This document shows positions 12,272 to 17,875 of a stretch of DNA of 64,000 nt, piece by piece. This stretch comes from a virus. The DNA lies in IMG/VR virus record IMGVR_UViG_3300011261_000048, positions 29,470 to 93,469 of that record. One strand, 5' to 3'. The notes below the pieces were generated by a model that did no database searches, had not been told where the DNA came from, and saw only the letters and a program-made list of their open reading frames with translations. Positions within the stretch are counted from its first letter, which is position 1. Every line of letters starts with the position of its first letter. A program made the translations under genes and the position numbers.

Positions 12272-12559
12272 CTATTTATCTTCTATAATCTCTGATACGG
12301 GACTCATCTTACTAAGCATCTCTTCAGGTATATCCTTTTGGCCACCTTCAATAGATACTAGTTTTGTTTCTCTCTCTTTATTAATTTCTCTTAAGATTGC
12401 TATGTTCTGATTATCCATGAACTCCATTAGAGCTAACATAGTCATTCTTCCCTCAGCATTCTCACATAGGGCAATGACTCTTAAGCCATCTTTACTTACC
12501 CTTGTCATCATGTTATTAAGTACATTAGTTGCACTGTTTACTTCTCTCTCTTTACTCAT
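12272..12559 (-). CDS. Hypothetical protein
   Basis: 95 aa ORF overlapping the GroEL stop, in operon. Confidence 0.6.
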   Translation of the reverse strand: MSKEREVNSATNVLNNMMTRVSKDGLRVIALCENAEGRMTMLALMEFMDNQNIAILREINKERETKLVSIEGGQKDIPEEMLSKMSPVSEIIEDK

Positions 12560-14078
12560 TTACTTCCTTTTTAATTATTACACAGTTAGTAGTAAATAAC
12601 ATGTTTGCTGCACTAACAGCATTTGTTATAGTTGCCTTAATTACTAAAGCAGGATCTACTATTGTACTCTCTATTAACTCTGCTTTTAGTATAGCAGCTT
12701 CACCTTTAGTTAACTCTCCATTCTCACATAGTGTTACCCATAACTTTCTCATACTATCAAATACAATTGGGGCAGCTACGTTACCTTTAAACTTAGGCTC
12801 ACACTTATAGATTAGGTTCTCATAAGCCATACATCCACCTTTAACAACTCCTTGTTCTAGTGCACTCTGTACTGCTCTAATAGTATCATCTAGTCTATCT
12901 TTCTTCTCTTTAACTTCAGCCTCATTAGCTCCTCCTACGTAGATAATAGCTGCACCTGAAGTAAGTAGACCTAACCTCTTCTTGAAGTTCTTAGCTAATC
13001 CTTCCTTATCGTCCTCTATCTTATCTCTGTAGTATTGAACTCTTTCAGCAATAGCTTCAGGTACACCTTTCCTACCAATAATAGTAGTTTCCTTTAAAGT
13101 AATGTTAACTGCATCAGATAAACCTAATGCTCCTACAGTAATACTCTTAACGTCCCATCCTTTCTTCCTAGATATAAAAGCTGCTCCAGTAGCAATAGCT
13201 ATATCTTCTAGTGCCTCTGTTCTAGCATCAGCAATAAAAGGAGCTCTAATAATCTCTATTAAAGAACCATTAGTCTCGTTATTATAAGCAACTATACTAG
13301 CAGCTTGTTCAGTAATGTCCTCACATATAACAAGTAAAGGTCCACCACAACTTTCCTGTAACTTTACTATCTCTACAGCATCTGTTTGAGTAGTGATCTT
13401 CAAGTCAGTAACTAGTATCTTACACTCTAGGTGCTTAACACTAGTTCTACCTCCTACTAAAGCAGGAACAATGTGGCTTCTATCTAACTTAATACCTTCA
13501 GTAGCATCTAAACTAGTCTCGTAGTTTCTTGAATCAAATACAGACACAATACCTTCTACCCCTATTACTTTAAATGCATCACTTACTAATCCAGCAATAT
13601 AACTATCACCATTACAAGCTACCATAGCAACATCTAAAACATCGTCTATAGTAATGTGTTTAGTATTAAGTTCTAGCTCTTCTAGTAGTACCTTTACTAT
13701 CTCATCAATTGAGTTCTTTAATTGAGTAGTGTTTAAAGACTTATTACTATTAAGTACGTTAAATCCTTCCTCTACAATATACCTAGTAAGTATAGTAGTT
13801 GAAGTAGTACCATCTCCAGCAATCTCAGCAGTTTTTGCTGCAGCCTGTCTAATGATCTGGGCTGCAACATTTTCTACTGGGTCTACAAGGTTAATACTGT
13901 TAGCAACAGTTACACCATCTTTTGTAATATGAGCATCGTTAAAGATTTTAGACAACGCTACATTTCTTCCAAAAGGTCCAAAGGTTGTACTTACTGCATC
14001 AAAGATAGTTTGACTACCTTTTAATAATCTTTCTTGTACTTCCTTCCCTTTAATTACCTCACAAGTCTCTCTTACCAT
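12552..14078 (-). CDS. groEL: Chaperonin GroEL-like
   Basis: TFGPFGRNV, ITKDGVTVA, AGDGTTSTT, GGANEAEVKEKKDRLDD, GVVKGG motifs. Confidence 0.95.
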   Translation of the reverse strand: MVRETCEVIKGKEVQERLLKGSQTIFDAVSTTFGPFGRNVALSKIFNDAHITKDGVTVANSINLVDPVENVAAQIIRQAAAKTAEIAGDGTTSTTILTRYIVEEGFNVLNSNKSLNTTQLKNSIDEIVKVLLEELELNTKHITIDDVLDVAMVACNGDSYIAGLVSDAFKVIGVEGIVSVFDSRNYETSLDATEGIKLDRSHIVPALVGGRTSVKHLECKILVTDLKITTQTDAVEIVKLQESCGGPLLVICEDITEQAASIVAYNNETNGSLIEIIRAPFIADARTEALEDIAIATGAAFISRKKGWDVKSITVGALGLSDAVNITLKETTIIGRKGVPEAIAERVQYYRDKIEDDKEGLAKNFKKRLGLLTSGAAIIYVGGANEAEVKEKKDRLDDTIRAVQSALEQGVVKGGCMAYENLIYKCEPKFKGNVAAPIVFDSMRKLWVTLCENGELTKGEAAILKAELIESTIVDPALVIKATITNAVSAANMLFTTNCVIIKKEVNE

Positions 14079-16271: not shown

Positions 16272-16706
16272 CTATCCTGTTATATTAGGATTATGTGTAA
16301 AATTCAAAATAGGTCTGTACTTCTTTATGTATTTAGCTTCTTTCTTCTTTCTTTCTGTAGCATTACCTTCAAACTTCTCATATTTAAAAGAAGTAAATTC
16401 TTTTTCAGTAGATTTAAAATGTTGAGATAATCTACTAAATATACATATGGATTCTCCTACATAAACAACTTCATTATCTCTAAATAAAAAATATATACCT
16501 GATATACCAAAAAAATCACTTACTGGAAAAGCACCGTTACTGAAATTACTATTTCTTTTTTCTCTAAGCTCCTTTTGTATTTCAATATTTGATTTACCTG
16601 CTTGCTTATTTCGTAACTTAGTAGCTTCTTCATCTAGAAGTAACTCATACTTCCTCATTTCCTCTCTACCTTTACCTTTAAATCCCATGATGCAAATATA
16701 AGCCAA
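16272..16706 (-). CDS. GIY-YIG family endonuclease (true start may be downstream of 16706)
   Basis: SGIYFL...VYVGES...RLSQH...KEAKYI...LN; lies next to the tRNA genes. Confidence 0.85.
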   Translation of the reverse strand: MAYICIMGFKGKGREEMRKYELLLDEEATKLRNKQAGKSNIEIQKELREKRNSNFSNGAFPVSDFFGISGIYFLFRDNEVVYVGESICIFSRLSQHFKSTEKEFTSFKYEKFEGNATERKKKEAKYIKKYRPILNFTHNPNITG

Positions 16707-16747
16707 ATAAATTATATATGCAAATATAAGCTATATAGCTTATAAAG

Positions 16748-16818
16748 TTTTGGGGAGAAGACTTGAACTCCTATTACCTGGACCAAAACCAGGTGTCCTG
16801 CCATTAGACGACCCCAAA
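16748..16818 (-). tRNA. tRNA-Gln(TTG)
   Basis: TTTGGGG/CCCCAAA acceptor, CCTGG-TTTTGGT-CCAGG anticodon arm, TTCAAGT T-loop. Confidence 0.9.
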
Positions 16819-16823
16819 ATATG

Positions 16824-16895
16824 TGGAGATAACAAGATTTGAACTTGTGTCCCTAGTTCTTCAGACTAGTGCTAGGCCAACTCAGCTATATCTCC
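16824..16895 (-). tRNA. tRNA-Phe(GAA)
   Basis: GGAGATA/TATCTCC acceptor, CTAGT-CTGAAGA-ACTAG anticodon arm, TTCAAAT T-loop. Confidence 0.9.
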
Positions 16896-16900
16896 ATATG

Positions 16901-16971
16901 TCTATAAGTCAAGATTCGAACTTGAGTACTCCTACGTCCAAGGTAGGCATGAAACCTGGCTTCGCTTATAG
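16901..16971 (-). tRNA. tRNA-Pro(TGG) with atypical short D-arm
   Basis: CTATAAG/CTTATAG acceptor, CCTAC-CTTGGAC-GTAGG anticodon arm, TTCGAAT T-loop. Confidence 0.8.
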
Positions 16972-16975
16972 ATAT

Positions 16976-17008
16976 AAAAAAAGCCCCTTTAAATTAATAA
17001 AGGAGCTT
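16976..17008 (-). terminator. Intrinsic terminator/attenuator immediately upstream of the tRNA genes
   Basis: Minus strand AAGCTCCTTTA-TTAATT-TAAAGGGGCTT-TTTTT. Confidence 0.85.
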
Positions 17009-17043
17009 AAAATCACGTAACAAAATGTTAAAACATCAACTTA

Positions 17044-17118
17044 TTAGGTAACAGTAAATCCTTTCCAGTAGTGAAACTGAAAAGGTAGAGGCATTGTATT
17101 TACTGTTAATGAGTTCAT
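17044..17118 (-). CDS. Putative 24-aa leader peptide of the tRNA operon
   Basis: MNSLTVNTMPLPFQFHYWKGFTVT*; lies between a promoter and a terminator; coding region is self-complementary. Confidence 0.7.
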   Translation of the reverse strand: MNSLTVNTMPLPFQFHYWKGFTVT

Positions 17119-17579
17119 TATTTTTTCTTTGTGATGCAAATATACATAATTAATATGTACCACCAAACTTTTTTGAAGAAATCTTTAAATTTATTTACTC
17201 TTCTGCCCTTATCTAATAGTAACCACTTATAAAAAGTATGAAAAGAGAAGTTCCTAACTACTAAAACTAGTATTGCTATATACCAAGTTGTTACTAATCC
17301 TATAGCTACGGCCCATAAAGTTATCTTAAGTCTCTTAAATAAATGCCAAGCATCAGTAAAAGAAACAGGCTTAGTAATCTTAAGTACTAAAATAGACCAC
17401 TTAACTCTACCTGAAGCAGGATCCCTATCCACATATTTAGATAACCATGACACATCTGGGTTCCAGAAGTAGGGGTTTGATCTTTTAAATGTACTTACAG
17501 AGAAGTGATGACTCAAAGTATCCATTATAGCATCACATATTCCTGCTAATGCTATACATATTATTACTGCTACTATCAT
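17118..17579 (-). CDS. Membrane protein
   Basis: 153 aa, several hydrophobic segments. Confidence 0.65.
   Translation of the reverse strand: MIVAVIICIALAGICDAIMDTLSHHFSVSTFKRSNPYFWNPDVSWLSKYVDRDPASGRVKWSILVLKITKPVSFTDAWHLFKRLKITLWAVAIGLVTTWYIAILVLVVRNFSFHTFYKWLLLDKGRRVNKFKDFFKKVWWYILIMYICITKKK
17137..17167 (-). promoter_or_regulatory. Bacteroidota sigma-A promoter for the leader/tRNA operon
   Basis: TTTG (17167-17164), 19-nt spacer, TATATTTG (17144-17137). Confidence 0.8.
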
Positions 17580-17875
17580 TCTCCTAAAGATTTAAGTCTT
17601 TTCCAATGCTTAATTACCTGGTAAGCAATTAGAGATAGTATACTTGTACTACCTGCTAGTAATATCCACTTCCAATGCATTTCATGGTAGGCAAATAAGT
17701 CAGGTGCTACTCCTATAAACAGGGTAATACCAATAAACAGGATAAGTAAACCTCCATTCTCTAACTGTAGTAGATGGTCCTTAAAACTGTAGCCATCCCA
17801 TATACCTCCTTTAACAGGGGATAAAAATTCCTTTAATTGCTTTTTCATATTTTCTTTTAATGTTAATACTGACAA
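17576..17875 (-). CDS. Small membrane protein, 2 TM segments (start probably at the internal MKKQLK)
   Basis: Two hydrophobic segments; TACCTTTG element at 17873-17880 upstream. Confidence 0.6.
   Translation of the reverse strand: MSVLTLKENMKKQLKEFLSPVKGGIWDGYSFKDHLLQLENGGLLILFIGITLFIGVAPDLFAYHEMHWKWILLAGSTSILSLIAYQVIKHWKRLKSLGE

Follow-up and report, generated by a model that had tools for sequence, protein, structure and literature searches.

A probable ribosome-mediated attenuator preceding the only tRNA genes of a putative crAss-like phage

The stretch of DNA considered here (64,000 nucleotides (nts), hereafter the window) corresponds to bases 29470-93469 of the 93.5-kb virus record IMGVR_UViG_3300011261_000048 of IMG/VR, the completeness of which is estimated at 98%. 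On its minus strand, the window carries a Bacteroidota-type promoter, a short leader open reading frame (ORF), an intrinsic terminator and the genes encoding tRNA-Pro, tRNA-Phe and tRNA-Gln (Table 1). This module, studied here as a candidate leader-peptide attenuator of tRNA genes, had been claimed in an original prediction for this DNA, and all of its parts are found where they had been placed. The three tRNAs are the only ones of the phage genome.

The promoter consensus TTTG-N17-21-TAnnTTTG is matched 9 times in the window, against 2.7 matches expected, and at least 9 matches were obtained in 0 of 100 shuffles. Upstream of the leader, the promoter sits within the 3′ end of an ORF of 153 amino acids, the final codons of which encode it. 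The leader ORF starts 18 nts past the -7 box, and its start codon and the TAA stop of the upstream ORF overlap (TAATG). Neither this overlap nor the location of the promoter within the upstream ORF was mentioned in the original prediction. Because the terminator ends 5 nts before tRNA-Pro, there is no space for a further promoter between them. Hence the leader promoter is the nearest source of tRNA transcripts.

Table 1. Features of the module and of its surroundings in the window (positions are those of the window).
Feature	Position	Strand	Remarks
Bacteroidota-type promoter	17137..17167	-	-33 TTTG at 17167-17164, 19-nt spacer, -7 TATATTTG at 17144-17137
Leader ORF	17044..17118	-	24 codons plus stop; second stop at 17043-17041
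Putative sensor run, codons 10-15	17074..17091	-	Pro-Leu-Pro-Phe-Gln-Phe in the window
Outer helix, 5′ arm (region 1a)	17098..17108	-	both partners of two pairs differ between versions
Inner helix, 5′ arm (region 1b)	17076..17085	-	overlaps the Pro-Phe-Gln codons; preceded by a 12-nt bulge with conserved CCTC(A/T)A
Region 2	17049..17069	-	3′ arms of the inner helix (17069-17060) and of the outer helix (17059-17049)
Spacer hairpin	17012..17052	-	enclosed by the antiterminator helix
Predicted antiterminator	16999..17064	-	17064-17055 (AAAGGA and TTTA) pairs with 17009-16999 (TAAG and TCCTTT, terminator 5′ arm)
Intrinsic terminator	16974..17008	-	11-bp stem at 17008-16981 and run of seven T; -13.8 kcal/mol
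tRNA-Pro (anticodon TGG)	16901..16971	-	atypical D arm; Rfam 33.2 bits, gathering score 29
tRNA-Phe (anticodon GAA)	16824..16895	-	ARAGORN and Rfam, 66.9 bits
tRNA-Gln (anticodon TTG)	16748..16818	-	ARAGORN and Rfam, 56 bits
Small membrane-protein gene	17576..17875	-	upstream of the module
Small membrane-protein gene	17118..17579	-	upstream of the module
Palindrome, core AAGCTATATAGCTT	16728..16745	-	perfect; right after tRNA-Gln, overlaps the first downstream promoter
Two tandem TTATATTTG promoters	16693..16728	-	in front of the GIY-YIG-like gene
GIY-YIG endonuclease-like gene	16272..16688	-	directly downstream of tRNA-Gln; Pfam PF01541, E=8e-6
GroEL gene	12552..14078	-

Four versions of the module, drawn from IMG/VR and from metagenomes, could be compared, namely that of the window, that of L001 (identical to L003, L004 and L006), that of L005 (which, like L007, comes from TARA) and that of a contig of 766 nts from the public run X3. 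Each of them retains the promoter, a leader frame open over 22-24 codons, a hairpin in two parts, the spacer hairpin and the terminator, and their common fold consists of the outer helix, a 12-nt bulge, the inner helix, the spacer hairpin and the terminator. Analysis with RNAalifold revealed that 4 of the 19 hairpin pairs and 3 of the 12 terminator pairs are changed on both sides while pairing is retained. The promoter is conserved in a coding context in L001, in a non-coding context in L005, where the upstream ORF stops earlier, and in X3, where it is changed only at the “nn” of TAnnTTTG. The match of the X3 contig, which comes from a viral metagenome, is confined to positions 16744-17174 of the window (93% identity, 28 differences). 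Because both flanks of the X3 contig are unlike the window, the module is conserved as a block, and the comparison suggests that the segment from the promoter to tRNA-Gln is exchanged as a cassette. A pattern scan for the tRNA-Pro returned the L001 contig only, and a scan for the leader motif returned chance matches only, none of which extended beyond the length of the pattern.

The coding content of the leader was followed across the same four versions. L001 has the same three tRNAs as the window and a 22-codon leader. Despite insertions and deletions, the leader frame is open in every version, its 3′ part being shifted in frame relative to the nucleotide alignment. Codons 10 to 15 read P-Q-P-F-Q-F in L001 and X3, P-L-P-F-Q-F in the window and P-Q-P-F-H-S in L005, which is devoid of tRNAs. 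The sequence CCTC, formed by a Pro codon and the base after it, is invariant in the four versions and located within the unpaired bulge. Three of the versions have CAA (Gln) as the codon following this Pro. A synonymous change from CCT to CCC, which breaks a pair, is tolerated in X3. In L005, codons 14 and 15 are changed from Gln-Phe to His-Ser together with compensating stem changes that keep the structure. This replacement of two of the six sensor codons fits a relaxed constraint, in one lineage only. The deletion of the three tRNAs has left a remnant in L005 (L005:1934-2003) and in L007, made of the first 15 nts of tRNA-Pro, a few unmatched bases and the last 15 nts of tRNA-Gln. In both contigs, the terminator is followed by a newly inserted hairpin.

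The original prediction stated that the leader codons call for the amino acids of the three tRNAs. To quantify this match, every amino-acid set of equal size was enumerated and the share of sets fitting the leader as well as the true tRNA set was determined. For the window, 6 of the 1140 three-amino-acid sets fit as well, while for L001 and X3 the figure is 1 of 1140, their codons P-Q-P-F-Q-F corresponding to exactly the set Pro/Phe/Gln of the tRNAs that they carry. Pro, Phe and Gln together represent 10.5% of the codons of the phage.

Relatives with larger arrays were found through the large terminase (TerL), at ~60% TerL identity. The arrays of L168, L169 and L170 share the strand of TerL and precede it by 4-5 kb, an arrangement also found in the window. 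The array of L168 is composed of Pro-Thr-Asn-Phe-Gln and those of L169 and L170 of Pro-Thr-His-Asn-Phe-Gln. These arrays are considered homologous to that of the window because the first tRNA and the last two are shared and the 5′ halves of the tRNA-Phe genes are nearly identical. Compared with them, the array of the window lacks the internal genes. Since genes for Thr, His and Asn tRNAs separate Pro from Phe in relatives, it is plausible that the other codons of the window leader are traces of lost tRNAs.

Each of these larger arrays is preceded by a TAnnTTTG promoter, a 23-codon ORF, a long hairpin containing this ORF and a terminator. In L168 and L169, the leader ATG is located 4 nts after the -7 box, and these leaders are not alignable with that of the window. 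In L168, codons 3 to 12 (F-N-T-Q-P-N-N-T-F-N) are drawn 10 out of 10 from the five-amino-acid set of the array, without any His, and only 1 of 15,504 sets fits as well. In L169, 10 of the 13 codons from 3 to 15 (N-I-T-H-T-S-Q-F-S-N-Q-F-P) belong to the six-amino-acid set of the array, His included (261 of 38,760 sets fit as well). The leader is the best-scoring small ORF in each contig compared. Hence the co-variation of leader codons with array content in related phages, put forward in the original prediction as a check of its claim, is observed in the L168 and L169 leaders. At the corresponding site of the more distant relatives devoid of tRNAs, neither leader nor terminator is present (8 out of 8), and the gene found ahead of the module in L168 and L169 has a GroES-like gene as its direct neighbor downstream. 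The module therefore appears to travel with the tRNAs. In L173, a solitary tRNA-Thr directly follows a coding gene and has no leader.

These comparisons bear on the possibility that the leader is an independent small RNA or small-peptide gene, the terminator marking the end of the upstream operon, the tRNAs being expressed by constitutive leak-through and the codon match being a coincidence helped by a pyrimidine-rich arm. Such a gene would account for the lack of conservation of the C-terminal part of the peptide, with its frame shifts relative to the nucleotide alignment, and also for the persistence of the promoter, hairpin and terminator in L005 and L007. The statistical weakness of the antiterminator in the family of the window (see below) is in its favor as well. 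However, the coincidence would have to recur in L168 and in L169 with different tRNA sets, and the module would not be expected to be missing from all eight of the distant relatives devoid of tRNAs. The tolerated pair-breaking synonymous change in X3 and the constancy of CCTC followed mostly by CAA, although in an unpaired bulge, also argue against it. Taken together, an independent gene is highly unlikely.

In agreement with the claim that the leader folds on itself, both helices originally quoted are present in its minimum-energy fold, and the proposed alternative pairing of AAAGGA with TCCTTT appears in constrained folds. In the window, this alternative helix comprises AAAGGA:TCCTTT and four further pairs and encloses the spacer hairpin. 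The curated Rfam leader families and the T-box gave no match in the module, the hits at E<=1 being the three tRNAs, a sub-threshold PyrR site and a spurious snoRNA. A T-box was rejected for lack of an Rfam hit and a PyrR-type protein-binding attenuator was rejected because the Rfam hit is sub-threshold. More generally, the hairpins could be signals for the processing or stability of the tRNA precursor (i.e., RNase entry or protection) or a PyrR-type attenuator, without any sensing by ribosomes. The likeness to the three-hairpin PyrR site (29.5 bits for a gathering score of 54, E=0.15) is what speaks for this explanation. Nevertheless, this match is far under threshold, the PyrR loop motif is missing, and both the conserved open frame and the co-variation of codons with tRNAs would be left unexplained, so that we regard it as barely credible.

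The effect of a stalled ribosome was modeled by masked folding, in which a ribosome footprint is placed at each A-site codon, the transcript is cut before the terminator 3′ arm and no pairing is allowed across the ribosome. Attenuation is settled before the 3′ arm has been synthesized, which is why the fold of the full-length transcript did not serve as a criterion. The procedure was calibrated on thrL, trpL, hisL and pheL of E. coli, in all of which regulatory codons in the A site lead to sequestration of the terminator 5′ arm, whereas a ribosome at the stop codon, or none at all, leaves this arm free. In the window and in X3, the arm is sequestered only with the A site at codons 9 to 15, with a difference in folding free energy (ddG) of -6 to -8 kcal/mol. 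Sequestration is confined to codons 10 to 14 in L001 (ddG about -5.5 to -7 kcal/mol), 9 to 15 in L005 (about -5 to -8 kcal/mol), 3 to 13 in L168 (down to -11.4 kcal/mol) and 5 to 14 in L169 (down to -11.8 kcal/mol). In the phage leaders, the A-site positions that lead to sequestration correspond to the matched runs of codons. Thus, under ribosome masking, the 1:2 / 2:3 / 3:4 layout attributed to the module behaves like the four E. coli leaders.

As these folding profiles call for no more than a ribosome halted on codons 9 to 15, whatever the cause, they would also be compatible with an attenuator reporting the general status of translation (i.e., ribosome availability or the coupling of ribosome and RNA polymerase), in which the codon match would have little functional weight. 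The sampling of each tRNA by one or two codons only would suit such a sensor. By contrast, a general sensor has no need for a leader composition that follows array content across sequence-unrelated leaders, down to the presence or absence of His, which makes this explanation unlikely.

A wider sample was formed of 120 unrelated IMG/VR contigs containing 295 arrays, gathered by means of a tRNA-Gln D-arm motif. In 18 units of this sample, a small ORF stops shortly upstream of a strong terminator that adjoins the array. The codons match the array at p<=0.05 in 5 of these units, with 0.9 expected, and at p<=0.01 in 3, with 0.2 expected. Six units were folded, i.e., the five matching ones and L273 (p=0.175), and the antiterminator window ends 1-3 codons from the end of the matched run.

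We propose that the module is probably a codon-specific, ribosome-mediated transcription attenuator, which gates the only tRNA genes of the phage and feeds back on tRNA supply. Transcription would start at the host-type promoter and the 24-codon leader would be translated at once. When codons 10 to 15 (Pro, Gln or Leu, Pro, Phe, Gln, Phe) are decoded fast, the ribosome would reach the stop codon, located where the leader hairpin ends. Formation of this hairpin (1:2) and of the terminator (3:4) would follow, and RNA polymerase would halt 5 nts before tRNA-Pro. When usable tRNA-Pro, tRNA-Phe or tRNA-Gln is scarce, decoding would be slow and the stalled ribosome would cover the 5′ arm of the hairpin. 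The freed 3′ arm could then pair with the terminator 5′ arm around the spacer hairpin (2:3), blocking the terminator and allowing readthrough into tRNA-Pro, tRNA-Phe and tRNA-Gln. Because the tRNA products would relieve the stall, the system would form a negative feedback loop on tRNA supply. Comparative data and calibrated computation support this attenuator, in which leader translation, conditional readthrough and the cause of host tRNA depletion are inferred. Anticodon nucleases, suggested in the original prediction, host RNA decay and late-gene demand are all possible triggers.

Several observations weigh against this attenuator. The leader has no more than one or two codons for each tRNA, and the Pro-Phe-Gln codons are partly constrained by structure because they are located within a pyrimidine-rich helix arm. 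The CCT and CCC codons require wobble reading by the UGG anticodon. The tRNA-Pro itself is a low-scoring tRNA, missed by ARAGORN, which calls Phe and Gln only; its stems are kept in X3 by compensatory changes, from A-T to C-G in the anticodon stem and from A-T to G-C in the T stem. In L005 and L007, the promoter, leader and terminator are intact after deletion of the three tRNAs. In the survey of unrelated contigs, codon-matched small ORFs upstream of 129 arrays taken with no terminator condition were not above chance. Furthermore, public sequencing runs containing the module sequence consist of three DNA runs with small shares of it and no RNA run.

The folding evidence has its own weaknesses. 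The antiterminator of the window family is short (6+4 bp). Replacement or permutation of the terminator arm indicated a moderate specificity at best for the native complementarity, permuted arms being as good as the native one in 7 of 200 cases for the window, 47 of 200 for L001 and 36 of 200 for L005. The corresponding counts are 4 of 150 for L168 and 11 of 150 for L169. The same permutation gave 0/100, 0/100, 6/100 and 18/100 for the E. coli controls and, because the controls themselves span such a range, it has little power. In addition, the terminator is favored at every ribosome position in full-length transcripts, with a probability (P) of 0.78-0.95. The switch would therefore have to be kinetic, as in classical attenuators.

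The anticodon-loop flanks of the phage tRNAs vary while the anticodons are fixed (window 16932-16947, 16850-16870 and 16775-16795 on the minus strand; L001:2205-2225). Across versions, tRNA-Pro has C or A at position 32, A or T at position 37 and C or A at position 38. The tRNA-Phe has G37 in the window and A37 in L001, and the tRNA-Gln has G37. As far as can be judged from the genes, this variation is in line with published ideas on nuclease evasion.

Directly downstream of tRNA-Gln lies a GIY-YIG endonuclease-like gene, preceded by two tandem promoters and by a perfect palindrome, which may act as an operator or as a hairpin for 3′ processing. L005, devoid of tRNAs, has a GIY-YIG homolog at the equivalent place, and a search of IMG/VR with the GIY-YIG protein returned no relatives. 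The presence of such a gene beside phage tRNAs resembles the situation in T4, the tRNA region of which has Seg homing endonucleases; by analogy, the endonuclease might move or delete the tRNA cassette. As a tentative extension of the attenuator reading, which we hold to be possible rather than probable, the module could be an exchangeable, self-contained “sense and replace” cassette. Such a cassette would detect the loss of particular host tRNAs and answer with phage copies that differ in their anticodon-loop flanks, its leader being rewritten at each gain or loss in the array, and the neighboring GIY-YIG gene may aid its spread between co-infecting phages. Host tRNAs may be lost, e.g., to anticodon nucleases, to other tRNA-targeting defenses or to phage-induced decay of host RNA.

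The window appears to belong to a crAss-like phage that infects marine Bacteroidota. PHROG 6681 and PHROG 6547 are matched by the large terminase and the portal protein, respectively, the guanine and cytosine content of the window is ~32% and the nearest relatives of the phage come from TARA and other marine metagenomes. A blastn comparison of 3 kb with GenBank phages gave a sole match, to 53 nts of the tRNA-Gln in Microbacterium phage Eden. The module is located near the head of a minus-strand block of structural genes. Two small membrane-protein genes lie upstream of it. Relatives of the 153-amino-acid upstream membrane protein were found in 113 IMG/VR stretches, few of them close, with an invariant ICD..MD and DAWH core; this protein has no match in Pfam or PHROG and a role in lysis or membrane processes is possible. 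The window also contains a phage GroEL gene, and a GroES-like co-chaperonin is encoded by relatives (L189, L235 and others) downstream of a Cys-rich gene. A GroEL/GroES chaperonin pair thus seems typical of this phage group. Distant relatives have a tRNA of the suppressor type, with anticodon TTA, and another that was called as SeC, with anticodon TCA (L015:1225-1299 and L192:5897-5992), which hints at stop-codon reassignment in some phages of the wider group.

Whether phages carry tRNAs mainly to compensate for codon usage, to replace those lost when host RNA decays or to evade tRNA-cleaving defenses, and when they use them, has long been debated. If the attenuator proposed here is real, the phage measures the decoding speed for exactly the tRNAs of its array and expresses them on demand. 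The debate would then be directly testable by asking which treatment (e.g., a particular nuclease, starvation or late-gene load) opens the switch. Besides amino-acid and synthetase genes, leader-peptide attenuation would then cover tRNA genes, its range would include viruses of Bacteroidota, and the leader would be a readable annotation of the tRNAs that an array should supply. In synthetic biology, such a module could provide a compact, programmable and codon-specific sensor.

In full-text literature searches, no paper describing leader-peptide attenuation of tRNA genes, whether phage or cellular, was found. In the portions of three reports covered here (PMC10264068, PMC11464382 and PMC11555353), phage tRNAs are presented as a counter-defense against tRNA-cleaving systems. 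This work provides a rationale for the replacement of specific tRNAs, and the phage tRNAs described above also vary at positions 32, 37 and 38; demand-sensing control of tRNA genes is unmentioned in those portions. In Anabaena sp. PCC 7120, the trn operon, an array of 26 tRNAs, is induced by translational stress (PMC8421152, PMC10272220). In the way proposed for the phage genes, this accessory array is normally silent and becomes active once translation is impaired. Unlike the phage module, it is controlled at the promoter, by direct repeats and the repressor TrcR, and the words leader and attenuation are absent from both papers.

T-box riboswitches similarly couple tRNA status to readthrough through the choice between terminator and antiterminator. 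They differ from the phage module in binding uncharged tRNA directly, without translation, in having a conserved T-box sequence and in being typical of Firmicutes. Attenuators that act on the decoding machinery through a leader peptide are closer. In E. coli, pheST is a case in which the synthetase genes are controlled by a leader-peptide attenuator. In Streptomyces, leader-peptide attenuators control the aminoacyl-tRNA synthetase genes alaS, thrS and trpS, some of them on leaderless mRNAs (PMC8079986). The L168 and L169 leaders appear to be on leaderless mRNAs too. In contrast to the phage module, the synthetase leaders control proteins that charge tRNAs, are monovalent and are cellular.

The closest parallel is with the enterobacterial attenuators, which include trpL, hisL and pheL and the multivalent leaders of thr (Thr/Ile) and ilvGMEDA (Ile/Val/Leu). 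In common with these, the phage module has a short ORF near the transcript start that is rich in the codons presumably sensed, a 1:2 hairpin, a predicted 2:3 antiterminator and a 3:4 terminator, and the phage leaders give the same kind of position-specific masking profile as thrL, trpL, hisL and pheL. It differs from them in being viral, in having a Bacteroidota-type promoter and one or two codons per tRNA and in belonging to no Rfam leader family. Above all, the phage module would regulate tRNAs instead of biosynthetic enzymes, such that the sensed quantity is the product itself.

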